The notes: generated from the sequence alone by a model not told the origin. Counted from the stretch's first letter, positions 2,834-34,200 are shown. The stretch: DNA of 39,027 nt from a virus (IMGVR_UViG_2531839663_000007), one strand, 5' to 3'. Numbers and translations are program-made.

Positions 2834-3430
2834 TTAATTCGAGACTATTGTACTTCTTATACAAGCAACCACTTCAATATCAGAAAATGCACATTCAAAG
2901 CTATTCTCTGCTGTTGTAATTTTAATCATTCCTTTAGGAAGCCTTGTGATTTTTCGAATGGAATAGGTTCCGTCGATATTGATTAACCAGTTTCCATCAA
3001 GTACTTCAGAAAATTTTTGATCACAAATGTATGTGACGAGTCCATCCTGAACAACAATTGGTGATGAAAGGTTTGCAGGAAGAAATGATGAATCGAAGAC
3101 ATATGAACCGTCTTCAATCATTTTGCCTGCGGCAAGGCGAAACTTAACAAGCTCTTCTGTAGCTGCTGTCAGCGAGCTTTGCTTAAGGCCTTGTCCGGTA
3201 GTTAACCATTTGAGGGAGGTTCCTGTTTCAAGAGCACATTGGATTATCCAGTCAGCAGGAAATGTATCCCGCAAATACCTGTTCGCTAGTGTGCTTTTTG
3301 ATACTTCCAAGTGATCAGCTAAAGCCTGTCGTGTCGTAAAGCCATAGGCTTCGACTAATCGCTCAATCGCAGCCTTACCACCTTTATTGGGATTTATTTT
3401 GATCTCACTTGGGTACTTTGATGTTGACAT
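2834..3430 (-). CDS. cI: CI-like immunity repressor (186 CI-type), 198 aa
   Basis: Recalled similarity to 186 CI (AYGF..NRY.R, ALETG..L.WL.TG, EC..D C-terminal region); position between int and divergent apl/cII. Confidence 0.8.
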   Translation of the reverse strand: MSTSKYPSEIKINPNKGGKAAIERLVEAYGFTTRQALADHLEVSKSTLANRYLRDTFPADWIIQCALETGTSLKWLTTGQGLKQSSLTAATEELVKFRLAAGKMIEDGSYVFDSSFLPANLSSPIVVQDGLVTYICDQKFSEVLDGNWLINIDGTYSIRKITRLPKGMIKITTAENSFECAFSDIEVVACIRSTIVSN

Positions 3431-9485: not shown

Positions 9486-9518
9486 AGGCGATGTCAATCA
9501 GATATCGCCTTGTTTTTT
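9486..9518 (+). terminator. Rho-independent terminator after the DinI-like gene
   Basis: Stem AGGCGAT/ATCGCCT with 11-nt loop followed by TGTTTTTT. Confidence 0.6.
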
Positions 9519-9544
9519 GTCAAGAAAAGAATAATAGGCTAAAA

Positions 9545-10222
9545 ATGAAAATTAATAATGTAGCGTTACCAATATCTCTTGCTGTAATCCTAACTGGTTG
9601 CGTGCCACATGCTTCTAACCGAAATATCACTGCTATTGAAGTGGTGAAGCCTGCTATTGGGCAAAGTGCTACCGCCTACATGGGCGATCCCATTATCACA
9701 TCTGCTACTGGATTTAAAACGGACGTACTAGAACTTGGTGCGGCTAATGGTGCATTGTCTTCTATCGCTGCTGGTACATATTGCAGTGAGGGGAATGGAA
9801 TTTACCGCAATTATCATAACCCTCAAGCTGTTGCGTTAAAAAATCTCTATGGGCAAATCGGTAACTATGTTGATTATGTTAGTTACGATGCTGCAAAAAA
9901 TGAGATATCACCGCCAAATGGTACTTCTTATACTGCATCAGAAATTTCTATCAAACGTGTTCCTGATGGGCTGTGTCGAGTTAGTAACTCATTGGTTAAG
10001 ACTATCGAATACAATGGAAATGCAGGCGGTGTAATGAAGTTCACCTATCGTGAATTTGCAAACGATATGGCTCGTGCAGCATTTACAACAGATTTTTCTG
10101 TAGATTCTAAGGGAAGTGACGTTATCGCTTACAAAGGTGCCAAGTTCAAAGTGAACAAGGCTGATAACTCGTCTATTTCTTATACAATTATTTCTGGCTT
10201 TGACAAGGCTGTCACGTTCTAG
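9545..10222 (+). CDS. Lipoprotein of unknown function (moron), 225 aa
   Basis: Signal peptide with lipobox LTGC (MKINNVALPISLAVILTGC); flanked by terminators; reduced GC. Confidence 0.7.
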   Translation: MKINNVALPISLAVILTGCVPHASNRNITAIEVVKPAIGQSATAYMGDPIITSATGFKTDVLELGAANGALSSIAAGTYCSEGNGIYRNYHNPQAVALKNLYGQIGNYVDYVSYDAAKNEISPPNGTSYTASEISIKRVPDGLCRVSNSLVKTIEYNGNAGGVMKFTYREFANDMARAAFTTDFSVDSKGSDVIAYKGAKFKVNKADNSSISYTIISGFDKAVTF

Positions 10223-10493: not shown

Positions 10494-11558
10494 ATGGCAG
10501 AAAACGGACCTCGTGAAGACTTGGCGAAGCTGGTGTCCCATAAACTATTGGAAAGATTTAAGTGGAAGCAACACGGTCCGACCGATCATGATTTTCCGTG
10601 TACTGAACAAGAATTACACAAGCCAGCGGAAAAAACGCAAGACCACACACATCCAGTTGATATTGTCTTTCATTATAAAGATCCTTACTTAAATAAAATT
10701 GTTTATCTAAATACTGATTTGAAAAGTTATTCAAAAGGGTCTTTAAATTCTAAAATGGTTGAAAATGCTTTAGATTCCTTAGCAAAAACTATTCATTGTG
10801 CGCAGAATAGTCAGGTATGGAAAAGTCGCTATGAGACAACCATGTCTAAAAGTGAAGTACGAGGGTTACTTTTTGTATATAATCATGATAATGACTATAA
10901 GCATAATTTCTATGACTATTTTTATCCTCCTAAACCCAAAAAAGGGAAAAGACCTGCGGCAGTTAATTTAGACAGAGTAAATGTATCTGAAAATCAGCAA
11001 ATACATATAATTGAGCCACGAACTATTAGTTATCTTATGTCTGTTGTTGCTGATATGAACGAAATGATTGCGGAAAATAAATTCCCGCGTGATGATTATG
11101 GGTTCTATTATCCTCAATTAATACTTCATAAGGTTGTGACTGCAGAAGAATATCTTCCAGCTACAGTGGAAACTCTAACATCCCCCTACATGATAATTAA
11201 ACATGGTCCAGTAATAGAATATAATAGAGCTAAAAAGGAGGACGAGCTGGTTTATCCTGAAGGGTTTATTGTTTATTACAACCGCTCCGGTAAAACAGAC
11301 TTAGAGTTTAATTATTTATTAGATACTCTAGCTAACTACCAGATATTAAACTCAAAAAATAATATTAGAATTAGAGTAGCATGTATTGATAAAAGTGAGC
11401 ACATACGGACTAATTTTATAAAAGCTATAGAAAAATTTTCATATCAGTGGGGATATGATGAATCTATGAAGGAAAAATTATTATCTATTGAGCTATATAT
11501 TGTGCCTCTATCTCGAGAGCAATATTTAACAGAAGAAAGATCATGGGATGTTAAATAA
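10494..11558 (+). CDS. Unrecognised protein, gene 1 of three-gene cargo operon, 354 aa
   Basis: AAAGGAGAA RBS 7 nt upstream; AT-rich; possible PD-(D/E)xK-like motif (PVDIVFHYKD...YLNTDLK) is inference only. Confidence 0.75.
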   Translation: MAENGPREDLAKLVSHKLLERFKWKQHGPTDHDFPCTEQELHKPAEKTQDHTHPVDIVFHYKDPYLNKIVYLNTDLKSYSKGSLNSKMVENALDSLAKTIHCAQNSQVWKSRYETTMSKSEVRGLLFVYNHDNDYKHNFYDYFYPPKPKKGKRPAAVNLDRVNVSENQQIHIIEPRTISYLMSVVADMNEMIAENKFPRDDYGFYYPQLILHKVVTAEEYLPATVETLTSPYMIIKHGPVIEYNRAKKEDELVYPEGFIVYYNRSGKTDLEFNYLLDTLANYQILNSKNNIRIRVACIDKSEHIRTNFIKAIEKFSYQWGYDESMKEKLLSIELYIVPLSREQYLTEERSWDVK

Positions 11559-12634
11559 TGAGTGAAATACACAGTGTTACAGACAAAGCTTTATACGAGG
11601 CTTTATGCCAATCACGTGTCACTGATAATGATATGGTGGAATTGTTTTTATCCCGTGGAATTTTGGTGTCAAAAAAAACTGAGCGTAAGCAACTAGCAAA
11701 AAATTTCTCAAAGCTCACTCATGATTATTATTTGCATCAGAAAATTTCTGGAATATTTGGAGGTTTTTTAAGGCGAGAGAAATCTACGGCTATAGTTATT
11801 AAGAATAATATTGATAAGCCACTACTTGTTAAGGCTGCTAATAAGCTTAAAGATCAGCTGGAAAGCGAAGATGATATATGTCATGTAATCAGTGATAAAG
11901 ATTTTATTAAAATTAGCATTACATACTTATCAACCAATTTTGGTAAAAGTGAATTTAACCAAGTAGAGAAGAAAACTGCTGTTTTTGAAATCGAGTCCCT
12001 TTCGGATGGTTTTTCAATTCGTAGGCCTGATAGTGAACAAGCTGAGATTTATAATAAAAAACTACTAAGTATTATCGAACAGGTTATACAAAAGGAAAAA
12101 GATATAGAAGCAACGACTTTAGATACAGAAGAAATCAACCTCGCGAACATCGATGACGCAGATAAAAGAACAGAATTTTTTAAGCGGCTCATCAATGGGT
12201 TGGATGGATATGTTTTAGATGATGTTACGGATGTTTATATCTACCATCCTAAACCTGCTGTCATGGAGGAGGAAGATGGGGATTCTGAAACAGGAATACA
12301 TATTAGCAAAGCATCTTTGAAAGGAGAGGGGGTGCTTAAATCTGAAGAGTTGAATTCTTTGTATGATAGAGGGTTTTATATTTGGAAAATAAGATGGAGA
12401 ATAAAGGATAAATCTACTACTCCAGATCTTTATGATTTTGAAGCTCAGTTTAGTGATCCTTTAGAGTTTAAGAGCTTTTCATATATTTCTAGAGGGGTGA
12501 GGAAATATAAAGGTGCCGGAGAATATAATAAAAATCCGAGCCAATTACCGGATGATGAAGAATATCATTTTAAAAGACTTATTGAAAAAACGGCGCGTTC
12601 AATTATAATGGATATTAATAAAGAGTATGAGTGA
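11558..12634 (+). CDS. Unrecognised acidic protein, gene 2 of three-gene cargo operon, 358 aa
   Basis: Start overlaps stop of gene 1 (TAATG); AT-rich; no Walker A or other motif recognised. Confidence 0.75.
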   Translation: MSEIHSVTDKALYEALCQSRVTDNDMVELFLSRGILVSKKTERKQLAKNFSKLTHDYYLHQKISGIFGGFLRREKSTAIVIKNNIDKPLLVKAANKLKDQLESEDDICHVISDKDFIKISITYLSTNFGKSEFNQVEKKTAVFEIESLSDGFSIRRPDSEQAEIYNKKLLSIIEQVIQKEKDIEATTLDTEEINLANIDDADKRTEFFKRLINGLDGYVLDDVTDVYIYHPKPAVMEEEDGDSETGIHISKASLKGEGVLKSEELNSLYDRGFYIWKIRWRIKDKSTTPDLYDFEAQFSDPLEFKSFSYISRGVRKYKGAGEYNKNPSQLPDDEEYHFKRLIEKTARSIIMDINKEYE

Positions 12635-12642
12635 GATAACAA

Positions 12643-13347
12643 ATGAAAACACTGGATAAAATTAAGTGGAGCAGAGTGAAGTTATCAATAACCTTCTCTG
12701 AACTAATTGATTATTTTAAACGTAATTCTTATGATGAAAGTAAAGGTTATGGTTATACTTTTGTGAATTTTACTGAACATGAAGTTTCCGCTTCTTATGT
12801 TGAAAAGTCATTGCGTACAGAAGTTATTGTATCGCCCGCGGGAGATGAGATAGAACAAGATTTTTTAGAGTATGAAACCATAAAATTTGCATTAAAGCCC
12901 GTATCTAAAAATCTCTCTTTATTGGCTATTTTTAATCCCCCTAAATCTATAAAGAAATTGACGGATAGACTTAGTGTAGATTTCAATTATAGGGTTGGAT
13001 TTGGTTCAATTACCTTAAATTTAAAGGAGTATATAAATTATCTAAGTTTACAGCATTCAATAAGTCTATTACATATTGATAAAATTAAAGTTAGCAATGT
13101 TGTGTTAAATGGGAACTCCAAGGCCTCGGTTGAGATAACTTCCACAAAAAATGCATTGTTAGAGCTAGAAAGTATTTTTACTAACAAAAAATATAATATA
13201 GATAAAGTTAGGTTGCATTGTTTGATTTACGGGGAACCTTCTTTTGTTGAGCTTTCAAAAAGCGCTTTTATTAATTCAGATTCTAATCATCTGGATTTTT
13301 ACTCCGACTTCCTCATTCAGCAATTATCTAATGATGAATTTCGTTAA
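12643..13347 (+). CDS. Unrecognised protein, gene 3 of three-gene cargo operon, 234 aa
   Basis: Starts 8 bp after gene 2; AT-rich; followed by hairpin. Confidence 0.75.
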   Translation: MKTLDKIKWSRVKLSITFSELIDYFKRNSYDESKGYGYTFVNFTEHEVSASYVEKSLRTEVIVSPAGDEIEQDFLEYETIKFALKPVSKNLSLLAIFNPPKSIKKLTDRLSVDFNYRVGFGSITLNLKEYINYLSLQHSISLLHIDKIKVSNVVLNGNSKASVEITSTKNALLELESIFTNKKYNIDKVRLHCLIYGEPSFVELSKSAFINSDSNHLDFYSDFLIQQLSNDEFR

Positions 13348-21374: not shown

Positions 21375-21768
21375 AGCGGTGCCTTATGTCCGCAATAACC
21401 CGGACAAACTGCATCTGTTTGTGGATAACGGTTCGCTGGTTGCCACGGGGGGCAGCTCCATGTCATGGGAGTACCGCTACACCCTGAACGTGGTGATTGA
21501 GGATTTCAGCGGCGACCAGAATCTGCTGATGGCCCCGGTTTTGCTGTGGCTGCGGGATAACCAGCCCGATGCCATCAATAACCCGGCGTTACGGGAAAAG
21601 CTATTCACCTTTGAGGTGGATATTCTGCGCAACGATGTCTGTGATATCAGCCTTAACCTGCAACTGACGGAGCGTGTGCTGGTCAGCACTGACGGCAGTG
21701 TGTCGAACGTTGAAGCGGTAGCGGAACCTGATGAACCTGAAGAAATGTGGACGGTGAAACGTGGCTGA
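21337..21768 (+). CDS. R: Tail completion protein (P2 gpR-like), about 143 aa; GTG start inferred
   Basis: AGGAGC RBS before GTG 21337; motifs DNGS, YTLNV, PVL.WLR.NQPD. Confidence 0.75.
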   Translation: MNKPQSLRHALNKAVPYVRNNPDKLHLFVDNGSLVATGGSSMSWEYRYTLNVVIEDFSGDQNLLMAPVLLWLRDNQPDAINNPALREKLFTFEVDILRNDVCDISLNLQLTERVLVSTDGSVSNVEAVAEPDEPEEMWTVKRG

Positions 21769-22207
21769 ACTGCAGAAGGTGGACAACTGGCTGAGTGCAT
21801 TATTGGCGAATCTGGAGCCAGCCGCAAGAAGCCGCATGATGCGCCAGCTGGCGCAGGAACTGCGCCGGACACAGCAGCAGAACATCAGGATGCAGCGCAA
21901 TCCTGATGGCAGCAGTTATGAGCCGCGCAGGGTAACAGCACGCAGCAAAAAGGGGCGCATCAAACGTCAGATGTTTACAAAGCTGCGCACCACAAAATAC
22001 CTGAAAACTGCCGCCAGCGCCGACTCTGCCAGCGTGCAGTTTGAAGGCAAGGTACAGCGCATTGCCCGTGTTCATCACTACGGCTTACGTGATCGCGTCA
22101 GCCGCAAAGGACCGGAGGTCCGTTACGCAGAGCGTCGCCTTCTGGGTGTAAATGATGATGTTGAGGCAATGACCCGCGACATGATTCTGCAATGGCTGGC
22201 GGGGTGA
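21761..22207 (+). CDS. S: Tail completion protein (P2 gpS-like), 148 aa
   Basis: Position and size; GTG start overlapping R stop. Confidence 0.75.
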   Translation: MAELQKVDNWLSALLANLEPAARSRMMRQLAQELRRTQQQNIRMQRNPDGSSYEPRRVTARSKKGRIKRQMFTKLRTTKYLKTAASADSASVQFEGKVQRIARVHHYGLRDRVSRKGPEVRYAERRLLGVNDDVEAMTRDMILQWLAG

Positions 22208-22211
22208 TTTT

Positions 22212-22229
22212 TGTATCAGCACTGATACA
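22212..22229. promoter_or_regulatory. TGT-N12-ACA dyad (candidate Ogr/B-type late activator site) upstream of V
   Basis: TGTATCAGCACTGATACA, near-perfect palindrome in the S/V intergenic region. Confidence 0.4.
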
Positions 22230-22275
22230 AGTTGCAGCACTGCCGCCTTTCTTCCCCTGATGGCAACCTTTCCCT

Positions 22276-22854
22276 ATGAACGCACAATTAACCGAAATCA
22301 TGCGCCTTATCACCAACCTGATCCGCACTGGGGTAGTCACCGAAGTGGACAGGACAAACTGGCTTTGCCGGGTGAAAACGGGCGACCTTGAAACTAACTG
22401 GATTAACTGGCTGACGCTGCGCGCGGGTAATGCCCGCACATGGTGGAAACCATCAGAAGGTGAGCAGGTGGTGCTGCTGAGTCTGGGCGGCAATCTGGAG
22501 ACTGCCTTTGCGCTGCCCGCTGTCTATTCGAATCAGTTCGCACCACCGTCGACGTCGGCGGACGCCTGCGTGACAGAACATCCTGACGGTGGCTGGTTTG
22601 AATATGAACCCGCCACCGGGCGCTGGTATGTCAGGGGCATCAAATCTATGGTCATTGAGGCCGTCGACAACATCACCCTGAAAACCAGTGAGTTTGTGCT
22701 GGAGGCTGACCGCACGCGTATTAACAGCGAAGTGGTGATCAATGGTGGTGTTACCCAGAGTGGCGGTGCAATGAGTTCTAACGGGATCGTGGTTGATGCG
22801 CATCAGCATACTGGTGTCCTGAAAGGCGGCGACACAACCGGAGGCCCGGTATGA
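22276..22854 (+). CDS. V: Baseplate spike protein (P2 gpV-like), 192 aa
   Basis: N-terminus MNAQLTEIMRLITNLIRTG parallels P2 V; position. Confidence 0.85.
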   Translation: MNAQLTEIMRLITNLIRTGVVTEVDRTNWLCRVKTGDLETNWINWLTLRAGNARTWWKPSEGEQVVLLSLGGNLETAFALPAVYSNQFAPPSTSADACVTEHPDGGWFEYEPATGRWYVRGIKSMVIEAVDNITLKTSEFVLEADRTRINSEVVINGGVTQSGGAMSSNGIVVDAHQHTGVLKGGDTTGGPV

Positions 22855-23210
22855 CGCTTTATAGCGGGATGAACAATACCAGCGGCAAAGTCATTACTGA
22901 TATTGACCATCTGCGCCAGTCGGTGCGGGACATTCTGCTGACACCGCAGGGGAGCCGCATTGCCCGTCGTGAATATGGTTCCCTGCTGTCGGCACTGATA
23001 GACCAGCCACAAAATCCGGCATTACGCCTGCAGGTCATGTCGGCAGTGTATGTGGCGCTGAGTCGCTGGGAGCCACGGCTGACGCTGAATTCCATCACCA
23101 TCAACAGCAACTTTGACGGTTCTATGGTGGTGGAGCTGACCGGGCGGCGGAATAACGGTGTGCCTGTGTCCCTTTCCGTATCAACAGGAGCAGAGAATGG
23201 CAGTGATTGA
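22851..23210 (+). CDS. W: Baseplate protein (P2 gpW / gp25-like), 119 aa
   Basis: Position and size; ATGA overlap. Confidence 0.8.
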   Translation: MTLYSGMNNTSGKVITDIDHLRQSVRDILLTPQGSRIARREYGSLLSALIDQPQNPALRLQVMSAVYVALSRWEPRLTLNSITINSNFDGSMVVELTGRRNNGVPVSLSVSTGAENGSD

Positions 23211-24105
23211 CCTTTCGCAGTTGCCTGCACCGCAGATTGTGGATGTGCCGGACTTTGAGACGCTGCTTGCCGAACGCAAGGCCGAATTTGTTGCGCTTCA
23301 TCCGAAAGATGAACAGGAAGCAGTGATCCGTACGCTGGAACTGGAATCTGAACCCGTCACCAAATTGCTTCAGGAGAACGCTTACCGTGAGTTGCTTCTG
23401 CGCCAGCGCATTAACGAAGCCGCGCATGCTGTGATGGTGGCTTACGCGATGGGCGGCGATCTTGACCAGCTCGCTGCCAACTACAACGTGAAACGCCTGA
23501 CGGTGACGCCTGCTGATAATGACGCTGTGCCACCCGTTGCGGCTGTGATGGAAAGCGATGAAGCGTTACGCCTGCGTGTGCCTGCGGCTTTTGAAGGGCT
23601 TTCGGTTGCGGGGCCAACCGCAGCTTATGAATTTCATGCCCGAAGCGCCGACGGTCGGGTGGCGGATGCCAGTGCAACCAGCCCGGCACCTGCAGAGGTG
23701 GTGCTTACGGTCCTAAGCCGTGAAGGCGACGGAACAGCAGAAAAAGACCTGCTGGACGTGGTGGAAAAAGCTCTGAACAGTGAGAACGTTCGCCCGGTGG
23801 CTGACCGTCTGACGGTTCGCAGCGCAGAAATCATCCCGTATCGCGTGGAAGCCACCATTTTTCTCTATCCGGGGCCGGAAGCAGAGCCGGTAATGGCAGC
23901 GGCAAAAGCCAGCCTGCAGAAATACATCGCCAGTCAGACGCGGCTTGGTCGGGATATTCGCCGTAGCGCCATCTTTGCCGCCCTGCATGTTGAGGGTGTG
24001 CAGCGTGTGGAGCTGGCTTCGCCGCTGGCGGATGTGGTTTTGAACAAAACGCAGGCGGCATCATGTACGGAGTGGAGCGTGACCAACGGGGGAACGGATG
24101 AATAG
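23197..24105 (+). CDS. J: Baseplate protein (P2 gpJ-like), 302 aa
   Basis: Internal ATG with AGGAG RBS gives 302 aa as in P2 J. Confidence 0.8.
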   Translation: MAVIDLSQLPAPQIVDVPDFETLLAERKAEFVALHPKDEQEAVIRTLELESEPVTKLLQENAYRELLLRQRINEAAHAVMVAYAMGGDLDQLAANYNVKRLTVTPADNDAVPPVAAVMESDEALRLRVPAAFEGLSVAGPTAAYEFHARSADGRVADASATSPAPAEVVLTVLSREGDGTAEKDLLDVVEKALNSENVRPVADRLTVRSAEIIPYRVEATIFLYPGPEAEPVMAAAKASLQKYIASQTRLGRDIRRSAIFAALHVEGVQRVELASPLADVVLNKTQAASCTEWSVTNGGTDE

Positions 24106-24703
24106 TCTGCTGCCATCGGGGTCAACTTCACTGGAGCGCCGACTGGCGCAAACGTGCAGCGGGATTTCTGATTTGCAGGTGCCGCTGCGTGACTTGTGGA
24201 ATCCGGCTACCTGTCCGGTCAGCTTCCTGCCTTATCTCGCCTGGGCGTTCTCTGTGGATCGCTGGGACGAGGGCTGGACAGAAAGCGTCAAACGCCAGGT
24301 AGTGAAGGATGCTTTTTATATTCATCAGCATAAAGGAACCACCAGTGCCGTGCGGCGGGTGGTGGAACCGTTCGGATTCCTGATCCGCATTATTGAGTGG
24401 TGGCAGACCGGAGAAACACCGGGCACGTTTCGCCTGGATATCGGCGTGCAGGACCAGGGCATCACTGAAGATACCTATCTGGAACTTGAGCGACTGATAA
24501 GCGATGCCAAACCATGTAGCCGCCACATGATCGGCATGTCCATCAATCTGCAGACCAGCGGTCCGCATTGGGTGGGAGCCGCCAGCTATCTTGGCGAAGA
24601 AATCACGATCTATCCGTATATCAACGAAACGATTATTTCCGGTGGCACCGCGCATGAAGGCGGGGCGGTCCATGTTATTGACACAATGAGAGTGAATCCA
24701 TGA
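24098..24703 (+). CDS. I: Baseplate/tail protein (P2 gpI-like), 201 aa
   Basis: Position and size. Confidence 0.8.
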   Translation: MNSLLPSGSTSLERRLAQTCSGISDLQVPLRDLWNPATCPVSFLPYLAWAFSVDRWDEGWTESVKRQVVKDAFYIHQHKGTTSAVRRVVEPFGFLIRIIEWWQTGETPGTFRLDIGVQDQGITEDTYLELERLISDAKPCSRHMIGMSINLQTSGPHWVGAASYLGEEITIYPYINETIISGGTAHEGGAVHVIDTMRVNP

Positions 24704-25971
24704 GCACAAAATTTTATACCCTGCTGACGGATATTGGCGCGGCGAAACTTGCCAGCGCCGCCGCGCTCGGTGTGCCGCTAAAAATTACCCATATGGCGGT
24801 GGGCGATGGCGGTGGAGTATTGCCAACGCCGGACGCAAAGCAGACGGCACTGGTAAATGAGAAACGCCGGGCTGCGCTGAATATGCTTTATATCGACCCG
24901 CAGAACAGCAGCCAGATTATTGCCGAACAGGTGATCCCTGAAAACGAGGGCGGTTGGTGGATACGTGAAGTGGGCTTGTTTGATGAGTCCGGGGCATTGA
25001 TTGCCGTGGGCAACTGCCCGGAAAGCTATAAGCCGCAACTGGCTGAAGGTAGCGGGCGCACTCAGACCGTGCGCATGGTGCTGATTACCAGCAGCACGGA
25101 CAATATCACCCTGAAAATCGACCCTGCTGTAGTGCTGGCAACCCGCAAGTATGTGGATGACAAGGCACTGGAGCTGAAGGTGTACGCGGATGATCAGATG
25201 GCAAAACATCTTGCCGCACCGGACCCGCATTCACAGTACGCGCCAAAAGCCAGCCCGACATTTACCGGAACCCCCAAAGCGCCAACGCCAGCGGCGGGGA
25301 ATAATACCACGCAGGTTGCGACCACTGCGTTTGTACAGGCGGCACTGACGGCCCTTATTAATGGTGCGCCAGCCACGCTGGACACGCTGAAAGAAATAGC
25401 CGCAGCCATTAACAATGATCCGAATTTCAGTACCACCATTAACAATGCGCTGGCACTAAAAGCACCGTTGTCGAGTCCGGCACTCACCGGAACGCCAACA
25501 GCCCCCACGGCGGCGCAGTCGGTCAACAATACACAGATTGCCACTACGGCTTTTGTGAAATCGGCGATTGCAGGAATGGTGGGTTCTGCACCTGCTGCAC
25601 TGGATACACTGAACGAACTGGCGGCGGCACTGGGGAATGATCCGAACTTTGCCACGACAATGCTTAATGCGCTGGCAGGTAAACAACCGCTGGACAATAC
25701 GCTTACCAATTTGAGTGGAAAGGATGTGGCTGGTCTTCTCGCATACCTTGGTTTGGGAGAAGGCTCAGCATTACCTGTTGGGGTGCCTGTTCCGTGGCCT
25801 TCAGCCACTCCGCCAACAGGCTGGTTGAAATGCAATGGTGCGGCTTTTTCTGCTGAAGAATACCCGGAACTGGCAAAGGCTTACCCGACAAATAAATTGC
25901 CTGATTTACGCGGTGAATTTATCGTGGATGGGATGATGGGCGTGGGGTGGATTCCTCTCGTGGTTTGTTGA
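24700..25971 (+). CDS. H: Tail fibre protein (P2 gpH-like) conserved part fused to a frameshifted, truncated variable segment, 423 aa
   Basis: N-terminal and collar repeats as in P2 H; C-terminus leaves frame after GEF through a 1-nt deletion relative to the intact inverted copy at about 28,050. Confidence 0.8.
   Translation: MSTKFYTLLTDIGAAKLASAAALGVPLKITHMAVGDGGGVLPTPDAKQTALVNEKRRAALNMLYIDPQNSSQIIAEQVIPENEGGWWIREVGLFDESGALIAVGNCPESYKPQLAEGSGRTQTVRMVLITSSTDNITLKIDPAVVLATRKYVDDKALELKVYADDQMAKHLAAPDPHSQYAPKASPTFTGTPKAPTPAAGNNTTQVATTAFVQAALTALINGAPATLDTLKEIAAAINNDPNFSTTINNALALKAPLSSPALTGTPTAPTAAQSVNNTQIATTAFVKSAIAGMVGSAPAALDTLNELAAALGNDPNFATTMLNALAGKQPLDNTLTNLSGKDVAGLLAYLGLGEGSALPVGVPVPWPSATPPTGWLKCNGAAFSAEEYPELAKAYPTNKLPDLRGEFIVDGMMGVGWIPLVVC
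25736..25761. other. Candidate invertase crossover site L1 (gix/hix-like), TTCTCGCATACC-TT-GGTTTGGGAGAA
   Basis: 26-bp site with half-sites resembling the TTATCCAAAACC consensus; inner half is the inverse of the right site. Confidence 0.5.
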
Positions 25972-26024
25972 CATCTCAAGACCATTTATTTGCTTCTCAT
26001 GGGCACTGGTTTGACAAGTTCGTA

Positions 26025-26058
26025 ATAACTTCGTATAGCATACATTATACGAAGTTAT
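26025..26058. other. loxP site, exact 34-bp wild-type sequence (ATAACTTCGTATA-GCATACAT-TATACGAAGTTAT)
   Basis: Exact match read directly, immediately followed by the duplicated gpH fragment. Confidence 0.9.
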
Positions 26059-26061
26059 ACG

Positions 26062-26416
26062 ATTAACAATGATCCGAATTTCAGTACCACCATTAACAAT
26101 GCGCTGGCACTAAAAGCACCGTTGTCGAGTCCGGCACTCACCGGAACGCCAACAGCCCCCACGGCGGCGCAGTCGGTCAACAATACACAGATTGCCACTA
26201 CGGCTTTTGTGAAATCGGCGATTGCAGGAATGGTGGGTTCTGCACCTGCTGCACTGGATACACTGAACGAACTGGCGGCGGCACTGGGGAATGATCCGAA
26301 CTTTGCCACGACAATGCTTAATGCGCTGGCAGGTAAACAACCGCTGGACAATACGCTTACCAATTTGAGTGGAAAGGATGTGGCTGGTCTTCTCGCATAC
26401 CTTGGTTTGGGAGAAG
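26062..26416 (+). repeat. 355-bp direct duplication of gpH coding sequence 25,408-25,762, including a second copy of the crossover site
   Basis: Identical sequence on visual comparison, diverging right after GGGAGAAG. Confidence 0.8.
26390..26415. other. Candidate invertase crossover site L2, direct repeat of L1
   Basis: Same 26-bp sequence as 25,736-25,761. Confidence 0.5.
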
Positions 26417-26795
26417 CGGCAAAACGGGATGTGGGGACAGGGAAAAATCAGATACCGGACATGGCCTCTTTTGCCAGTGGTGATGGATGGATGAAATTAC
26501 CCAACGGGAAAATCCTGCAATATGGTCGTGGTGCGGTTACGCCGACATTATCGACGCAAACAATGAGAATTACATTCAGCATCCCTTTCCCCAAAAAAGC
26601 GGACTGCGCCATGCTTACTCATTCTGGTGATGGCGGTGCGCCTTTAGGCGCTGGGCGAGGGTTCGTGATGACTGCAGAAGGCCCAACGTTAACCGGCTTT
26701 AATTCTGCTTACAGAACGTCATCAACCAGCGACACGGTATCGATGAATTACAGTTGGTGGGCTGTTGGTGAGTAATTTTATTCAGGGTGATTTAT

Positions 26796-27239
26796 ATGAA
26801 CGAATATATTTATAGCGCAAGGCATAATGCTTTTTTCCCTGTGGATATGATTGATAAATATAAATCAGAGGGATGGGATTTATCAGATGCTAAGGAAGTG
26901 AATCAAAATATTATCAGTGAGTTTATGGCTGAACCGCCACAAGGAAAAATCCGTATTGCCGGAAATGATGGGCTGCCTGCGTGGGCAGATATTCCTCCAC
27001 CCACGCATGAAGAGCTTATTGAAATTACTGAATCAGAAAGACAGCTATTAATTAACCAGGCCAACGAATACATGAACAGTAAACAATGGCCCGGTAAAGC
27101 CGCTATTGGTCGTCTGGAAGGTGACGAACTGGCGCAATATAATTTGTGGCTGGATTATCTGGACGCACTGGAGCTGGTCGATACTTCCGGTGCGCCAGAT
27201 ATTGAATGGCCTACGCCTCCGGCAGTTCAGGCCAGATGA
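26796..27239 (+). CDS. Tail fibre assembly chaperone, 148 aa
   Basis: Follows the tail-fibre C-terminal segment; C-terminal motif LWLDYLDALELVDTSGAPDIEWPTPP shared with the minus-strand chaperone. Confidence 0.7.
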   Translation: MNEYIYSARHNAFFPVDMIDKYKSEGWDLSDAKEVNQNIISEFMAEPPQGKIRIAGNDGLPAWADIPPPTHEELIEITESERQLLINQANEYMNSKQWPGKAAIGRLEGDELAQYNLWLDYLDALELVDTSGAPDIEWPTPPAVQAR

Positions 27240-27813
27240 CATCCGGCGCGGTGCTGGTATCTGTTGCCGTCACCGCGTCAATGTAATCCAGCACAGCGTT
27301 AAGGCGGGTTGTTTCTGCCTGCGTCAGTTTACGTCCGGCCTGCAATTTCAGCTGAATCAGACTGATGGAGGCCATTGCAGTATCAATCAGCGACTGGCGC
27401 TGTGCTTCTGCTGCATCTACTGCTGCGCCGTGCTGTGCCTCGGTATCCGTCACCCATTTCTCACCATCCCATTTATCGTATGGCGTTAACGGGGCGATAG
27501 TGGTTGTATTATCAGGGTAATCACCCGGAGCTGTGATTTCTTTTGATTCCCCTGTTTCGGTGCTAAAAACGATTTCACCGCGATGGTCTGGCATATATTC
27601 CCATGATTTTAAATCTGCTGAACGGCAGATAGTATAACCAGCCTTATATGTACCAGGAGCATCTAAACAGGAATACGCCGGAATACCGACACCCACAACA
27701 AGATATTCGGTTGATGTGGAAAGATATTCCTTCGTCTCAGCATCAAAATTATAAACGGTAATGTTTCCTGCCTTTGTAGTAATGAGTTCGCTATTTAATA
27801 CGGCTTTATTCAT
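27211..27813 (-). CDS. Tail fibre assembly chaperone, alternative copy inside invertible segment, 200 aa
   Basis: C-terminal motif VLDYIDAVTATDTSTAPDVIWPELP; convergent with plus-strand chaperone. Confidence 0.7.
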   Translation of the reverse strand: MNKAVLNSELITTKAGNITVYNFDAETKEYLSTSTEYLVVGVGIPAYSCLDAPGTYKAGYTICRSADLKSWEYMPDHRGEIVFSTETGESKEITAPGDYPDNTTTIAPLTPYDKWDGEKWVTDTEAQHGAAVDAAEAQRQSLIDTAMASISLIQLKLQAGRKLTQAETTRLNAVLDYIDAVTATDTSTAPDVIWPELPEA

Positions 27814-28289
27814 CAGGCTGCCCTCACGATATAGTTAAATGCGACGTTGCGCGGCCGGGTTTCAGAACCACCAACCGATACCGTAGAAATTGAATTTGCC
27901 GTAATAAGTTCCCCGAAAGCATCAGCCGTAACTACAAACCGACCTCCCGTTGGATCAAAACCTGTTAGCGCATAGTACTTGTCAAACCAGTGCCCATGAG
28001 AAGCAAATAAATGGTCTTGAGATGTCAACAAACCACGAGAGGAATCCACCCCACGCCCATCATCCCATCCACGAATAAATTCACCGCGTAAATCAGGCAA
28101 TTTATTTGTCGGGTAAGCCTTTGCCAGTTCCGGGTATTCTTCAGCAGAAAAAGCCGCACCATTGCATTTCAACCAGCCTGTTGGCGGAGTGGCTGAAGGC
28201 CACGGAACAGGCACCCCAACAGGTAATGCTGAGCCTTCTCCCAAACCAACGTTTAAGAAAATGCAGAGGTAACAGCTAACTGGCATCAT
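27813..28289 (-). CDS. Alternative tail-fibre C-terminal variable segment (Mu S / P1 S type); in-frame coding ends near 28,248, so it is expressed only after inversion fuses it to gpH
   Basis: Contains GSALPVGVPVPWPSATPPTGWLKCNGAAFSAEEYPELAKAYPTNKLPDLRGEF identical to gpH end, then an intact domain; stop overlaps chaperone start. Confidence 0.65.
   Translation of the reverse strand: MMPVSCYLCIFLNVGLGEGSALPVGVPVPWPSATPPTGWLKCNGAAFSAEEYPELAKAYPTNKLPDLRGEFIRGWDDGRGVDSSRGLLTSQDHLFASHGHWFDKYYALTGFDPTGGRFVVTADAFGELITANSISTVSVGGSETRPRNVAFNYIVRAA
28236..28261. other. Candidate invertase crossover site R, TTCTCCCAAACC-AA-CGTTTAAGAAAA, inverted relative to L1/L2
   Basis: Left half matches gix-type half-site TTATCCAAAACC at 10 of 12 positions; boundary of the long inverted homology. 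Confidence 0.5.
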
Positions 28290-28316
28290 CTCCGGTTTTT
28301 ATTCAGGGGGATGATC

Positions 28317-28883
28317 ATGCTTATTGGCTATGTACGCGTGTCAACAAATGACCAGAACACCGATTTGCAACGTAATGCACTGAACTGCGCGGGATGTGAG
28401 CGGATTTTTGAGGACAAAATCAGTGGCACTAAGTCCGACAGACCGGGGCTGAAAAAACTACTCAGGACACTATCGGCAGGAGACACGCTGGTTGTCTGGA
28501 AGCTGGACAGGTTGGGGCGCAGTATGCGGCATCTTGTTACGCTGATAGAAGAGTTGCGCCAGCGTGGTGTGAATTTCAGAAGCCTGACTGACAGTATTGA
28601 TACCAGTACCCCAATGGGCCGTTTCTTTTTTCATGTCATGGGTGCCCTGGCTGAAATGGAACGCGAACTGATAGTTGAACGTACCAGGGCAGGGCTGGCT
28701 GCAGCTCGTGCCAAAGGCAGAGTAGGTGGACGCCGTCCTAAGTTGACCACCGAACAGTGGGCACAGATTGGGCGTTTACTCGAGGCCGGAGAATCAAGAC
28801 AGCGTATTGCACTGATTTTTGATGTAGGCGTTTCTACCATTTATAGAAAATTTCCGGCAAATAAGATCAATGAATCCCCCTGA
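28317..28883 (+). CDS. Serine DNA invertase (Hin/Gin/Cin/Pin family), 188 aa
   Basis: N-terminus LIGYVRVSTNDQ with catalytic Ser, resolvase domain and C-terminal HTH (GVSTIYRKF); close recalled similarity to Hin. Confidence 0.9.
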   Translation: MLIGYVRVSTNDQNTDLQRNALNCAGCERIFEDKISGTKSDRPGLKKLLRTLSAGDTLVVWKLDRLGRSMRHLVTLIEELRQRGVNFRSLTDSIDTSTPMGRFFFHVMGALAEMERELIVERTRAGLAAARAKGRVGGRRPKLTTEQWAQIGRLLEAGESRQRIALIFDVGVSTIYRKFPANKINESP

Positions 28884-28931
28884 ATCAGCATTATGTTGAT
28901 TATCCCTGCAAGCAGACAAATACCGTTATTT

Positions 28932-28949
28932 TGTGTGAATAACGACACA
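28932..28949. promoter_or_regulatory. TGT-N12-ACA element (candidate Ogr/B-type late activator site) upstream of FI
   Basis: TGTGTGAATAACGACACA in the invertase/FI intergenic region. Confidence 0.4.
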
Positions 28950-29025
28950 ACTGCGCTTAGCTGTTTGTCAGGCACAATCACTTCAACATAGGGCGAAGCC
29001 TAATCCAATCAGGAGGTTCGCCACT

Positions 29026-30198
29026 ATGGCTCAGGATTACCACCACGGGGTGCGCGTTGTTGAAGTCAACGAAGGCACCCGATCTATTACCACGGTGAGC
29101 ACCGCCATCGTGGGTATGGTCTGCACGGGCGATGATGCCGATGCAAAAATGTTTCCTCTTAATAAACCCGTGCTGATCACTGATGTGCTGACTGCCAGCG
29201 GTAAAGCGGGTGAGTCAGGTACTCTGGCCCGTTCGCTGGATGCCATCGCTGACCAGGCAAAACCCGTGACCATTGTTGTGCGTGTGCCGCAGGGTGAAAC
29301 GGAAGACGAAACCACGACCAATATCATCGGCGCAGTGACTGCTGAAGGTAAAAAAACAGGTATGAAAGCCCTGTTATCTGCCCAGTCACAGCTCGGCGTT
29401 AAACCGCGCATTCTCGGCGTGCCAGGCCACGACACCAAGGCGGTAGCTACTGAGTTGCTGAGCGTGGCGCAAAGCCTGCGTGGATTTGCTTACCTGTCAG
29501 CGTATGGCTGCAAGACAGTGCAGGAGGCGATCACTTACCGCGAAAACTTCAGCCAGCGCGAAGGGATGCTGATCTGGCCTGACTTTACTGGCTGGGACAC
29601 GGTGCTGAATGCCGAAGCAACGGCATATGCCACCGCCCGTGCGCTTGGTCTGCGCGCCAAAATTGACGAGCAGACCGGATGGCACAAAAGCCTGTCCAAC
29701 GTGGGCGTGAACGGTGTCACCGGCATTTCTGCAGATGTGTTCTGGGATCTGCAGGACCCGGCAACCGATGCAGGTCTGCTGAACCAGAACGACGTCACCA
29801 CGCTTGTGCGTAAAGACGGTTTCCGCTTCTGGGGTTCCCGCTGCCTGAGTGATGACCCGCTCTTTGCCTTCGAAAACTACACCCGCACGGCGCAGGTGCT
29901 GATGGACACGATGGCAGAAGCACACATGTGGGCGGTGGATAAACCGCTTAACCCGTCGCTGGCCCGCGACATTATCGAAGGTATCCGCGCCAAAATGCGC
30001 AGCCTGGTCAGTCAGGGCTATCTCATTGGTGGTGATTGCTGGCTGGATGAGTCGGTGAACGACAAAGACACGCTGAAAGCCGGAAAACTCACCATCGACT
30101 ACGACTACACGCCAGTGCCGCCACTTGAAAACCTGATGCTGCGTCAGCGCATCACCGATCAGTACCTGGTGAATTTCGCCAGCCAGGTCAGCGCGTAA
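29026..30198 (+). CDS. FI: Tail sheath protein (P2 gpFI-like), 390 aa
   Basis: Position and size. Confidence 0.85.
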
Positions 30199-30207
30199 GG
30201 GGACAAC

Positions 30208-30723
30208 ATGGCTTTACCACGCAAATTAAAACACCTGAACCTGTTTAACGACGGGAACAACTGGCAGGGGATCGTTGAGTCGCTGACGCTGCCGAAATTT
30301 ACCCGCAAATATGAGAAGTATCGCGGCGGCGGAATGCCGGGTGCGGTGGATGTGGATCTGGGGCTTGATGACAGTGCGCTGGACACAGAATTTTCCATTG
30401 GTGGTACTGAACTGCTGCTGTTTAAGCAGATGGGCAAAGCCACGGTGGATGGCATCCAGCTGCGCTTTACCGGCTCTATTCAGCGTGACGATACCGGGGA
30501 AGTGCAGGCCGTGGAGCTTGTCGTGCGTGGACGTCACAAAGAAGTGGATTCCGGCGAGTGGAAGACGGGCGAAAGCAACACCACCAAAGTGACCAGTACC
30601 AACAGCTACGCGAAGCTGACCATCAATGGTGAGGTGCTCTATGAAGTGGACCTTATCAACATGGTGGAAATTGTGGACGGTGTGGACCTGATGGAAGCGC
30701 ACCGCAACGCCCTCGGCCTCTGA
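30208..30723 (+). CDS. FII: Tail tube protein (P2 gpFII-like), 171 aa
   Basis: Position and size. Confidence 0.85.
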   Translation: MALPRKLKHLNLFNDGNNWQGIVESLTLPKFTRKYEKYRGGGMPGAVDVDLGLDDSALDTEFSIGGTELLLFKQMGKATVDGIQLRFTGSIQRDDTGEVQAVELVVRGRHKEVDSGEWKTGESNTTKVTSTNSYAKLTINGEVLYEVDLINMVEIVDGVDLMEAHRNALGL

Positions 30724-30777
30724 TATATCTGAACGGCGCGGGATACCGCGCCAGAGCCCAATTGACAGGACAGCAAA

Positions 30778-31080
30778 ATGAGCGATAAGCAGACTGAAAA
30801 GACCATTCAACTGGATACCCCCATCAAGCGCGGTAAAACAGAAATCACCGAAATTGTGCTGCGTAAACCGCAGTCCGGTGCGCTGCGCGGTACACGCCTG
30901 CAGGCCATTATGGATATGGATGTAAACGCGATGATGACCGTGATCCCCCGCATCTCCAGTCCGGCACTGACTGCACAGGAAATTGCAGAGATGGACCCGG
31001 CAGATCTCACTGCCATGTCGGTTGAGGTTGTCACTTTTTTGTTGAAGAAGTCGGTGCTTGCCGGTTTACCGACAGCCTGA
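30778..31080 (+). CDS. E: Tail assembly chaperone (P2 gpE-like), 100 aa
   Basis: Position between tube and tape-measure genes; contains slippery heptamer near its 3' end. Confidence 0.8.
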   Translation: MSDKQTEKTIQLDTPIKRGKTEITEIVLRKPQSGALRGTRLQAIMDMDVNAMMTVIPRISSPALTAQEIAEMDPADLTAMSVEVVTFLLKKSVLAGLPTA

Positions 31081-31214
31081 CGGTTGACGATCTGGTGGCA
31101 GATATCGCCACCATTTTTCACTGGCCGCCATCCGTTACTGACGTTATGCCGCTGACCGAAGTGCTGGAATGGCGGTATAAAGCGATTCAGAGAAGCGGGG
31201 CCAACGATGAGTGA
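30778..31214 (+). CDS. E+E' fusion made by programmed -1 ribosomal frameshift at T-TTT-TTG (31,035-31,041)
   Basis: Slippery heptamer in the E frame; the -1 frame stays open to a TGA at 31,212-31,214 overlapping the T start. Confidence 0.6.
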
Positions 31215-34200
31215 TAACAACCTGCGTCTGCAGGTCATTCTTAATGCGGTTGACAAGCTCACCCGCCCATTTCGATCTGCGCAGGCCAGTTCAAGAGAAC
31301 TGGCTGCTGCTGTCAAAAAATCCCGCGATGCAATAAAGCAGCTTGATCAGGCCGGGAGCAGTCTGGACAGCTTCCGAAAGCTGCAGGCAGAAAATCAGAA
31401 ATTAGGCGACAGGCTGAACTATGCCCGCCAGCGTGCAAATTTGCTCAGTCAGGAACTGGGAGCGATGGGGCCGCCTTCGCAACGTCAGGTTGTTGCTCTG
31501 GGCCGTCAACGGCTGGCTGTTCAGCGCCTGGAAGAACGCCAGAAAAAGCTGCAGCAGCAGACGGCGCTTGTGCGTGCTGAACTGTACCGGGCGGGAATTT
31601 CTGCGAAAGACGATGCGGGAGCAACTGCCCGTTTAGCCCGTGAAACATCACGTTATAACCAGGAACTTTCGAAACAGGAGGCGCGGCTGAAGCGACTGGG
31701 GGAAGCTCAGCGCAGGATGAATGCAGCGCGTGCCAGTTATGCCCGTTCGCTGGAGGTGCGTGATCGTATTGCAGGTGCCGGAGCCACCACCACGGCTGCA
31801 GGGCTGGCAATGGGTGCGCCAGTGATGGCGGCAGTAAAAAGCTATACCAGCATGGAAGATGCCATGAAAGGTGTGGCAAAGCAGGTCAATGGTCTGCGTG
31901 ACGATAATGGCAACCGCACTGCACGTTTTTATGAAATGCAGGATGCCATCAAGGCTGCCAGCGAACAGTTGCCGATGGAAAACGGTGCGGTGGACTTCGC
32001 TGCACTGGTTGAAGGTGGTGCGCGCATGAACGTCGCAAACCCTGACGACAGCTGGGAAGATCAGAAACGTGACCTGCTGGCCTTCGCCAGTACGGCAGCA
32101 AAGGCGGCAACAGCCTTTGAGCTGCCAGCGGATGAACTGTCAGAAAGTCTGGGGAAAATCGCCCAGCTCTACAAAATCCCCACCCGCAATATTGAACAGC
32201 TCGGTGATGCGCTGAACTATCTGGATGATAACGCCATGTCGAAAGGGGCAGACATCATTGATGTGATGCAACGTCTGGGCGGTGTGGCTGACCGTCTGGA
32301 TTATCGTAAAGCGGCGGCGCTGGGTTCCACCTTCCTGACACTGGGCGCTGCGCCAGAGGTTGCAGCCAGTGCAGCAAACGCGATGGTGCGTGAATTGTCC
32401 ATTGCCACCATGCAAAGCAAGAGTTTCTTTGAAGGGATGAATCTGCTGAAACTCAATCCTGAAGTGATTGAAAAGCAGATGACGAAGGATGCGATGGGAA
32501 CCATCCAGCGCGTGCTGGAGAAGGTAAACGCGCTGCCGCAGGACAAGCGCCTGTCTGCCATGACTATGTTGTTTGGTAAAGAGTTTGGCGATGACGCGGC
32601 GAAACTGGCAAACAACCTGCCGGAACTGCAGCGTCAGTTAAAACTGACAGCGGGCAATGATGCGCTCGGCTCCATGCAGAAAGAATCCGACATTAACAAG
32701 GATTCACTTTCTGCGCAGTGGTTGCTGGTCAAAACCGGAGCGCAGAACACCTTCAGCAGCCTGGGCGAAACGCTGCGCCAGCCGCTGATGGATATTCTGT
32801 ACACGGTGAAAAGCGTCACGGAGGCGTTGCGTCGCTGGGTGGAAGCTAACCCGGAACTGACAGGCACACTGATGAAAGCATCGGCTGTTGTGGCTGCGGT
32901 TACCGTCGGCCTCGGCACCTTAGCGGTGGCGCTGGCTGCAGTGCTGGGGCCGCTGGCAGTGATCCGTCTGGGATTCTCTGTGTTGGGTATCAAAACGTTA
33001 TCTTCCGTTACGGCAGCAGTAACTCGAACCAGCAGCGCGTTGTCCTGGCTGGCTGGCGCACCACTGGCACTGCTGCGACGCGGGCTTGCTTCATCGGGCA
33101 ACGCCGCAGGTTTACTTACTGCGCCGTTGTCGTCTTTGCGCCGCACGGCATCACTGACGGGAAATGTCCTGAAAACTGTAGCAGGTGCGCCGGTTGCACT
33201 TTTGCGGTCTGGATTATCCGGTTTACGTGCTGTTGCTGTGATGTTTATGAATCCTCTGGCGGTACTGCGCGGTGGACTGGCCGCCGCAGGCACGGTGCTG
33301 CGAGTACTGGCATCTGGTCCACTGGCGATGCTGCGCGTTGCCCTGTATGCCATATCTGGTCTGTTAGGTGCTCTGCTTAGTCCGATAGGTCTTGTGGTTA
33401 CTGCACTGGCGGGTGTGGCGCTGGTTGTCTGGAAATACTGGCAACCCATCACCGCATTTCTCGGTGGCGTGGTGGAAGGATTCAAAGCGGCGGCAGGTCC
33501 CATCAGTGCAGCGTTTGAACCACTTAAGCCCGTGTTCCAGTGGATTGGCGACAAAGTGCAGGCGCTGTGGGGCTGGTTTACTGATCTGCTGACGCCTGTT
33601 AAGTCGACCTCTGCCGAACTGCAGAGCGCAGCGGCAATGGGGCGACGATTCGGGGAGGCACTGGCGGAAGGGCTGAATATGGTCATGCATCCGCTGGACT
33701 CCCTGAAATCCGGCGTTTCCTGGTTGCTGGATAAACTCGGCATTGTCAGTAAAGAGGCTGCAAAGGCGAAACTGCCGGAAAGCGTGACGCGTCAGCAACC
33801 TGCGACGGTGAATGCAGACGGTAAAGTGATGATGCCATCGGGTGGTTTTCCGTCATGGGGATATGGCTTTGCGGGGATGTATGACAGCGGCGGCTATATC
33901 CCGCGCGGGCAGTTTGGCATCGTCGGTGAAAACGGGCCGGAAATTGTCAACGGCCCGGCAAACGTGACCAGCCGGAGAAATACCGCTGCACTGGCTGCGG
34001 TTGTTGCCGGAATGATGGGCGTTGCTGCCGCGCCTACAGAGCTTCCACCGTTACATCCTTTGGCACTTCCCGCGAAAGGCGGCGAAGCGATGGTGAGTCG
34101 TGCAGCCACTGTGCCGCCCGTTCAACGGATTGAGGCACCGACGCAGATCATCATTCAGACGCAGCCAGGACAAAGTGCGCAGGATATTGCGCGGGAGGTG

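Follow-up and report, generated by a model that had tools for sequence, protein, structure and literature searches.

Gin/Pin-type tail-fibre switches are textbook systems, and those closest to the locus described here are the G segment of Mu with its invertase Gin, the C segment of P1 with Cin and the P segment of e14 with Pin. In these systems, a small serine invertase adjoins a segment flanked by two inverted 26-bp sites; the segment holds two fibre C-termini and two convergent chaperone genes, and the constant N-terminal part of the fibre is encoded outside. Such switches have also been published for P2-like E. coli prophages. In strain E2348/69, an invertase and inverted repeats of a P2-like prophage switch the C-terminal end of the fibre, and clonal cultures contain both variants side by side; one of the EPEC loci is a genuine shufflon, with three repeats and three C-termini (Goldberg et al. 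2014, PMC4272514).

We analysed a 39,027-nucleotide stretch of DNA (the window) that derives from contig AFAD02000018.1 of the 2012 draft WGS assembly of E. coli strain 2.4168. A reading made from the sequence alone (the sequence-only reading) had described a Hin/Gin-type invertible tail-fibre segment with three crossover-site copies, a long inverted homology and a frameshifted fibre gene. The biology at this locus is already known. The real locus is almost certainly an ordinary two-site Gin-type tail-fibre switch in a P2-like prophage, which looks unusual because a read carrying an untrimmed Cre/loxP mate-pair linker was assembled into the contig, creating a false 654-base block.

The invertible segment and its relatives

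The segment lies within a complete P2 tail module (V-W-J-I-H ... FI-FII), and we collected its features, together with those of the inserted block, in the table. We propose that the real layout would run from the constant part of the H gene (Hc) through the left crossover site to the two variable ends and their chaperone genes, the second chaperone and Sv being on the minus strand, and then to the right site and the invertase. The invertase would act on the two inverted 26-bp sites, exchanging strands at their central dinucleotide, and inversion would fuse the constant part of H to either of two C-terminal receptor-binding ends, each with its own chaperone.

Table. Features of the tail-fibre segment and of the inserted block, in window coordinates
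Feature	Position	Strand	Basis or remark
Hc, constant 5' part of P2 H-type tail-fibre gene, through left crossover site	24700..25762	+	Pfam Phage_tail_fib N-terminal domain, E 4e-65; collinear with TW10690 and MB06022
Left crossover site, gix-like, TTCTCGCATACC TT GGTTTGGGAGAA	25736..25761	+	18/26 match to Mu gix; single real left site, first assembled copy
Artefact: left arm of linker read, first 258 nt of Sv joined to Hc in flipped orientation	25763..26020	+	Reverse complement of 27990-28248 except for a 1-nt gap
Artefact: 42-nt Cre/loxP mate-pair library linker, CGTAATAACTTCGTATAGCATACATTATACGAAGTTATACGA	26021..26062	+	42/42 exact match; loxP proper at 26025-26058
Artefact as second copy: right arm of linker read and continuation, Hc 3' end and left site	26063..26416	+	Exact repeat of 25409-25762
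Second assembled copy of left crossover site (L2 of the sequence-only reading)	26390..26415	+	Identical to 25736-25761; inside duplicated block
Sv', variable fibre C-terminus, expressed in assembled orientation	26416..26775	+	Pfam Gp53-like_C, E 5e-12
U'-like tail-fibre assembly chaperone for Sv'	26796..27239	+	Pfam Caudo_TAP, E 5e-30
U-like tail-fibre assembly chaperone for Sv	27211..27813	-	Pfam Caudo_TAP, E 6e-33
Sv, alternative fibre C-terminus (tail-collar domain), silent in assembled orientation	27813..28249	-	Pfam Collar, E 1e-15
Right crossover site, gix-like, TTCTCCCAAACC AA CGTTTAAGAAAA	28236..28261	+	17/26 match to Mu gix
Gin-family serine DNA invertase, 188 aa	28317..28883	+	Pfam Resolvase, E 2e-53, and HTH_7, E 1e-15

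The serine invertase reading frame described earlier is present, and its product has the features of a small serine recombinase: an N-terminal catalytic domain, an active-site serine and a C-terminal helix-turn-helix, as judged from Pfam and from the match of residues 1-184 to the Mu Gin structures 3uj3 and 4m6f (E 1e-92). The catalytic-serine motif YVRVSTNDQ is intact. The 5' region of the invertase gene aligns with gin, and a crude scan for Fis motifs, which are very degenerate, gave one candidate here versus three in gin, none of them clearly at homologous positions. Both convergent genes that had been called chaperones carry the Caudo_TAP domain.

The crossover sites are two inverted 26-bp sequences, each with imperfect 12-bp half-sites around a 2-bp core, and the two cores are complementary. 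The left site reads TTCTCGCATACCTTGGTTTGGGAGAA in both of its assembled copies, its inverted partner on the right reads TTCTCCCAAACCAACGTTTAAGAAAA, and the inner half-sites of the two are exact inverted repeats of each other. The sequence-only reading had proposed alignment to known gix, hix or cix sites as a test of its claim, and the sites match Mu gix at 17 to 18 of 26 positions, with the same 12-2-12 layout and TTnnnnnAAACC half-site pattern. The half-site consensus common to the segment sites and to gixL and gixR from the Mu record is TTCTCCTAAACC.

Unlike the Mu G segment, this segment is part of a P2-type tail cluster rather than a Mu or P1 genome, is about 1.85 kb instead of 3 kb, has variable ends from other families (gp53-like C and tail collar) and carries TT/AA rather than TC/GA as the central dinucleotide. 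The E2348/69 loci, which we likened to it by their description, share the P2-like prophage setting and the invertase-driven switch of the fibre C-terminus (PMC4272514). The third repeat of the EPEC shufflon is real; that of the present segment arose in assembly.

Near-identical prophages are found in other E. coli strains in both orientations, with TW10690 representing orientation A and MB06022 orientation B. Alignments switch strand at 26402-26416 and at 28235-28252, the latter being the boundary between inverted and collinear alignment to MB06022, and the exchange thereby maps inside the 26-bp sites. The Gin-like invertase, the gix-pattern sites, the two C-termini with their chaperones and the occurrence of both orientations in relatives thus bear out the proposal of a Hin/Gin-type invertible tail-fibre segment. 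DNA matching the 4.2-kb region occurs in 3,303 of 5,426 complete E. coli genomes, and 22 of these genomes hold most of the region.

A library linker inside the fibre gene

The 42-nt string at 26021-26062 contains a perfect loxP (34/34), for which the chance expectation is none, and native P1-family lox contexts match just 34 to 37 nt of the 42. We take the string to be the Roche 454 GS FLX Titanium linker, and the sequencing platform was presumably 454. Two papers quote the identical 42-nt string verbatim as a mate-pair adapter and describe it just as a mate-pair or Cre/loxP adapter (PMC5199103, PMC5710592). The linker had escaped the sequence-only reading.

Among the GTDB representative genomes, 94 stretches of unrelated drafts from many phyla contain this 42-mer, with carriers that include Paracaedibacter, Legionella, Gemmata, Leptospira, Kitasatospora and Streptococcus, and it often lies at contig ends or on tiny contigs with about 1x coverage. 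It is also found in Lactococcus phage Q33 and in a Nonomuraea record. None of the other linker-containing loci that we sampled showed a local back-jump like that of the 2.4168 contig, and they are therefore evidence of contamination only, not of geometry. The practical value of these results is a data-quality warning: the untrimmed library linker in the public record AFAD02000018.1 gives rise to a spurious duplication, a spurious pseudogene and what looks like an additional recombination site, and many further public draft genomes, together with one phage record or more, contain this 42-mer. A linker screen is advisable as the first step in scans for recombination sites, loxP-like sequences, signatures of engineered strains or "unusual" invertible segments.

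The sequence on the two sides of the linker has a distinctive geometry. To its right, the contig jumps back 611 bp to 25409, which produces an exact 355-nt direct duplication (25408-25762 and 26062-26416, with a spacing of 654) that abuts the linker and has one junction base in common with it. The two arms share one strand, and the start of the right arm at 25409 maps upstream of the end of the left arm at Sv +258. Downstream of the repeat, the contig follows the true genome path in orientation A. The inverted homology of about 260 bp reported previously does exist in the deposited letters, at 25748-26019 versus 27990-28249, where the two copies differ by a single 1-nt gap and a single mismatch within the site, but it was created by the linker read and is not genomic. 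The same holds for the three site copies: all are present in the contig, but the third belongs to the linker-made block. The second of the two direct sites that, on the sequence-only reading, could support deletion also lies within this block, and the deletion proposed between them (L1-L2) is an artefact.

A 1-nt deletion (TT>T at 25921/2) is found in the left arm only, while the right-hand copy of Sv in the window and both relatives have TT. Because of this deletion, the H reading frame as deposited ends early at 25971. In the deposited contig, a truncated 423-aa fibre and a 217-aa orphan ORF are both called as genes. Removal of 25763-26416 brings Sv' in frame with Hc and gives an intact fibre of 473 aa. 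In-silico flipping gives an intact fibre of 494 aa that is identical at 490 of 494 positions to the annotated fibre of MB06022. The frameshift described for the present orientation is therefore true of the deposited letters and is gone once the block is removed. The further claim that only a flip or an L1-L2 deletion would give a functional fibre is not supported: the block-free present orientation already encodes an intact product.

The closest relative lacks 25763-26416, being shorter by exactly 654 bp, and TW10690 has the duplicated 355-nt stretch once. The window is collinear with MB06022 up to 26019 and with TW10690 from 26062 onward. The junction is spanned by none of the 5,426 complete E. 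coli genomes, and the linker junction is absent from the GTDB representative genomes. We conclude that the 654-bp block in the deposited contig is, with very high probability, non-genomic.

We propose that the 42-nt linker was retained in a read of a library fragment circularised by Cre/loxP (mate-pair or paired-end), and we infer that one low-coverage read caused the whole block. The fragment would have spanned 25409 to a point 258 nt inside Sv, and its source would have been a DNA molecule with the segment flipped. The assembler would then have threaded the contig through this read, from Hc and the site to the 5' part of Sv, through the linker and back to 25409. This would leave the contig with the left site twice, with the start of Sv copied in inverted form over 260 bp and with a one-base homopolymer error that cuts the H frame short.

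This reading agrees with what is expected of a mate-pair linker left in an assembly: the 42-nt linker is exact, the arms are same-strand and out of order, as fits a circularised fragment, and the linker recurs in unrelated drafts. It is atypical in that the read was built into the interior of a 959-kb contig and not into one of its ends, and in that the implied fragment is unusually short. Such libraries are normally size-selected at several kb, and the implied fragment of about 611 bp counts against a linker read, as does one unexplained extra T (26020) where the Sv arm meets the linker.

Other origins for the block

We weighed the opposite view that the block is genuine in 2.4168, that is, a loxP-bearing tandem duplication in the fibre gene with two direct and one inverted gix site, where the invertase would both invert the segment and delete L1-L2 to repair the fibre gene, and we consider this very improbable. 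One way to obtain a real block is a laboratory scar from insertion-duplication mutagenesis, in which a suicide plasmid with a 611-bp internal H fragment from flipped DNA integrated by a single crossover; Cre then excised the backbone, so that a lone loxP separates two direct copies of the Hc end. An integration of this Campbell type with later Cre excision would give the same order of fragment end, lox and fragment start, and a PCR error on the plasmid copy could account for the 1-nt deletion. The loxP is perfect, as is also expected of a genuine laboratory scar, and this is a point against a linker read. However, loxP is flanked on either side by exactly the 4 nt that flank it in the mate-pair linker (eight flank matches would occur by chance at about 1.5e-5), and this 42-mer recurs as a contaminant in many unrelated draft assemblies. 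Beside loxP there is no trace of a vector or cloning site, genomic sequence starting directly to the right of the linker and ending one base (the T at 26020) before it on the left, and no FRT, further lox site or marker was found within the 39-kb window. The flanks are not those of a vector or cassette, and 2.4168 is listed by strain name alone among wild-type genomes, as a draft WGS assembly. A laboratory scar is thus very unlikely.

The linker read could instead join two different P2-like prophages of one strain, so that the window would be a chimera of two loci. This view draws on the region from 21700 to 24200, which is just 94 to 96% identical to TW10690, compared to about 99.6% in the right part of the window. 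However, the change occurs near 24200, 1.5 kb before the junction, and identity to TW10690 is uniformly about 99.5 to 100% over 24200-31900, without a step at 25762/26062. From this uniformity it follows that the cleaned contig is one continuous natural prophage. The 355-nt stretches that border the block show 100% mutual identity, and the gene order is that of a complete P2 tail module, both of which also speak against a chimera. We hold this origin to be highly unlikely as well.

A natural segment with two direct sites and one inverted site, a long inverted homology and a frameshifted fibre repaired by a flip or an L1-L2 deletion has next to no chance of being correct: the sites and homology exist in the deposited letters and three-site tail-fibre shufflons occur naturally in an EPEC P2-like prophage (PMC4272514), but the extra site is inside the exact 355-nt duplication that starts directly after the linker, there is no third C-terminal end beside it, the relatives have two sites, the three-site layout occurs in 0 of 5,426 complete E. 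coli genomes, and nothing in nature would account for a synthetically flanked P1 loxP in a P2-type H gene.

On the linker-read origin that we favor, the left arm of the read would show the flipped junction within strain 2.4168 itself. The stray read is probably a record of both orientations coexisting in the sequenced culture, which suggests that the invertase is active in the lysogen.

A mate-pair linker in the fibre segment

The deposited sequence contains the features first read from it, namely two identical 26-bp crossover sites, an inverted partner site, a long inverted homology, a pair of convergent chaperone genes inside the segment and an invertase gene. The stretch from the inverted homology to the second left site contains a perfect wild-type loxP (34/34; chance expectation none), the only lox-type site of the window; a search of the window for FRT sites returned none. 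The loxP is part of a 42-mer, CGTAATAACTTCGTATAGCATACATTATACGAAGTTATACGA, which is present with zero mismatches and which we take to be the linker used in Roche 454 GS FLX Titanium paired-end sequencing. With 59 nt around loxP as the query, P1-family phages and plasmids matched over just 34 to 37 nt; two unrelated records, Lactococcus phage Q33 and a Nonomuraea chromosome, matched over 41 to 42 nt. The 42-mer is printed verbatim as one of two adapters screened out of mate-pair libraries (PMC5199103), and a second paper reports it as the adapter used to make a Cre/loxP mate-pair library (PMC5710592).

When GTDB representative genomes were scanned, 94 stretches of draft assemblies carried the 42-mer, including Paracaedibacter, Legionella, Gemmata, Leptospira, Kitasatospora, Dechloromonas and Streptococcus drafts, and many of the matches were at contig ends or in ~230-bp contigs with ~1x coverage. 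The 42-mer is a recurrent technical contaminant of assemblies. In phage Q33 (L002, JX564242.1, 1501-1541), the linker sits between the portal and minor-capsid genes and overlaps the annotated portal CDS, and Nonomuraea gerenzanensis carries copies at 8 places in its chromosome (L003, NZ_LT559118.1, 1501-1542). These copies, like those in the linker-bearing loci L007 to L086, are probably further untrimmed-linker artefacts. The value of the case is as a warning on linker contamination in public assemblies.

The duplicated block and its read geometry

The closest natural relative, Escherichia coli TW10690, has 99.6% identity over the right-hand part and is shorter than the window by exactly 654 bp. 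The sequence-only reading had counted the second left site, L2, as an additional crossover site. Because an exact direct repeat begins right after loxP, L2 is merely the end of a duplicated block.

Features of the fibre segment and its surroundings
Feature	Window position	Counterpart or detail
P2-type integrase	1-1053 (-)
558-aa protein	1137-2813 (-)
CI-type repressor	2834-3430 (-)
243-aa ORF	9491-10222
Three consecutive genes	10494-13347 (+)
Alignment to TW10690	21700-25762	TW10690 1-4063
Alignment to TW10690	26062-31900	TW10690 3709-9547
Inverted alignment to TW10690	25748-26019	TW10690 Sv gene
Truncated fibre call	24700-25971	423 aa
Left crossover site	25736-25761	26 bp
Second left site (L2)	26390-26415	26 bp, identical
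Inverted partner site	28236-28261
Inverted homology	25748-26019	27990-28249; 272 nt
Artefactual block	25763-26416	654 bp
TT>T loss	25921/2	left arm
42-mer	26021-26062
loxP	26025-26058
Exact direct repeat	26062-26416	25408-25762; 355 nt
ORF call	26122-26775	217 aa
Invertase gene	28317-28883	188 aa

A read across the linker of a Cre-circularised fragment runs from fragment end through linker to fragment start on a single strand, and the arms in the window fit this pattern. The left arm stops 258 nt into Sv, the variable C terminus that is silent as assembled, which is joined through the crossover site to Hc, the constant 5' part of fibre gene H. This is the flipped orientation, and the arm is collinear with E. 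coli MB06022 as far as 26019. The right arm resumes at 25409, 611 bp upstream, in the assembled orientation and collinear with TW10690. The flipped arm of this stray read suggests that the sequenced culture was a mixture of both orientations. A lone extra T at 26020 separates the end of the Sv-derived arm from the linker; native Sv continues with A, and the T is absent from the 42-nt linker.

We found nothing when the exact junction was sought in GTDB representative genomes, and no record among complete E. coli genomes, phages and plasmids spanned it. The back-jump geometry was also sought at the linker sites of four other assemblies (three Leptospira and Streptococcus macacae); these showed no local duplication and therefore document contamination only.

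The frameshifted fibre, earlier taken as a property of the genome, is due solely to the TT>T loss in the left arm; the window's own Sv copy, like both relatives, retains TT. The loss would be a homopolymer miscall of the kind expected of single-read pyrosequencing coverage. The original observation holds as sequence text, but the unusual features of the segment are an assembly artefact.

Only one public contig, AFAD02000018.1 (assembly GCA_000194555.2), carries the truncated fibre product; there the artefact has been called as two genes, this fibre and an ORF that starts inside the duplicated block. If the contig runs in the orientation of the window, its linker falls at about 304,207-304,248 (offset +278,186). 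The assembly, a draft submitted in May 2012, belongs to E. coli strain 2.4168 (PMC9638481). The loxP had raised the idea of a laboratory Cre/lox scar, from insertion-duplication mutagenesis or a recombineering-made duplication; we dropped it because the 42-nt string, flanks included, is the mate-pair linker and recurs in unrelated assemblies. No sign of engineering was found when looked for in strain 2.4168, and its draft dates from an era when such mate-pair libraries were common.

The Gin-type switch in the cleaned locus

Deleting the 654-bp block (25763-26416) in silico gave an intact fibre of 473 aa composed of Hc and the expressed C terminus, Sv'. In silico exchange at the central dinucleotides gave an intact Hc-Sv fibre of 494 aa, identical to the annotated MB06022 fibre at 490/494 residues, and both crossover sites came back unchanged. 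Because identity to TW10690 is uniform over 24200-31900 (0 to 5 mismatches per 500 nt), with no step at the junction, the cleaned contig is one continuous natural prophage, and a chimera of two prophages is ruled out.

The proposed Gin-type invertible fibre switch is borne out by its invertase, its gix-like sites, its paired C termini and chaperones and the occurrence of both orientations in relatives. The invertase has a Resolvase plus HTH_7 architecture, matches Mu Gin structures over residues 1-184 (E 1e-92) and retains an intact catalytic-serine motif. Its gene aligns with gin in the 5' region, where a Fis-dependent enhancer would lie; a crude Fis-motif scan gave one candidate, against three in gin, and none stood clearly at a homologous position. 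The crossover sites have a 12-2-12 layout with complementary cores (TT and AA) share the half-site TT....AAACC and are identical to Mu gixL/R at 17 to 18 of 26 positions when the comparison is anchored by hand on the 26-bp sites. The segment holds two alternative C termini, one of the gp53-like C type and the other a tail collar, and a Caudo_TAP chaperone for each. Other E. coli carry near-identical prophages in either orientation, and the alignments change strand within the 26-bp sites. Coexisting segment orientations, and one genuine three-repeat shufflon, are described for P2-like prophages in E. coli cultures (PMC4272514). The remaining element is a standard Gin-type switch of a kind already known. 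In TW10690 (L001, 3001-4422), the annotation gives H as a pseudogene fragment (3001-3390, labelled "missing C-terminus"), and a gp53-like CDS follows as a distinct gene.

The prophage and its other genes

The window is a P2-type prophage, with the gene order integrase, repressor, replication gene, portal/terminase, capsid, lysis, baseplate V-W-J-I, fibre H, switch region, tail sheath FI, tube FII, tape measure and D. A sharp mosaic boundary with TW10690 lies at ~24200, with 15 to 56 mismatches per 500 nt upstream (21700-24200; genes S, V, W, J) and 0 to 5 downstream (24200-31900). This points to recombination among P2-like prophages, either inside gene I or where J meets I.

The 558-aa protein encoded between the integrase and repressor genes has a PADLOC match to PD-Lambda-1, an anti-phage system (E 8e-120), and Pfam DUF4041 and T5orf172/MUG113 domains; its gene is a defence gene in a prophage hotspot. 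The 243-aa ORF had no match to anything searched. Next to it, between the replication and portal genes, three consecutive genes match PADLOC Hp1, Hp2 and Hp3 (E 3e-62, 8e-40 and 3e-14). A search for Pfam domains in these genes returned none, and the first has an additional weak NCBIfam GapS4a match. As a trio they are a candidate defence system, occupying the "old/tin"-type cargo position of P2.
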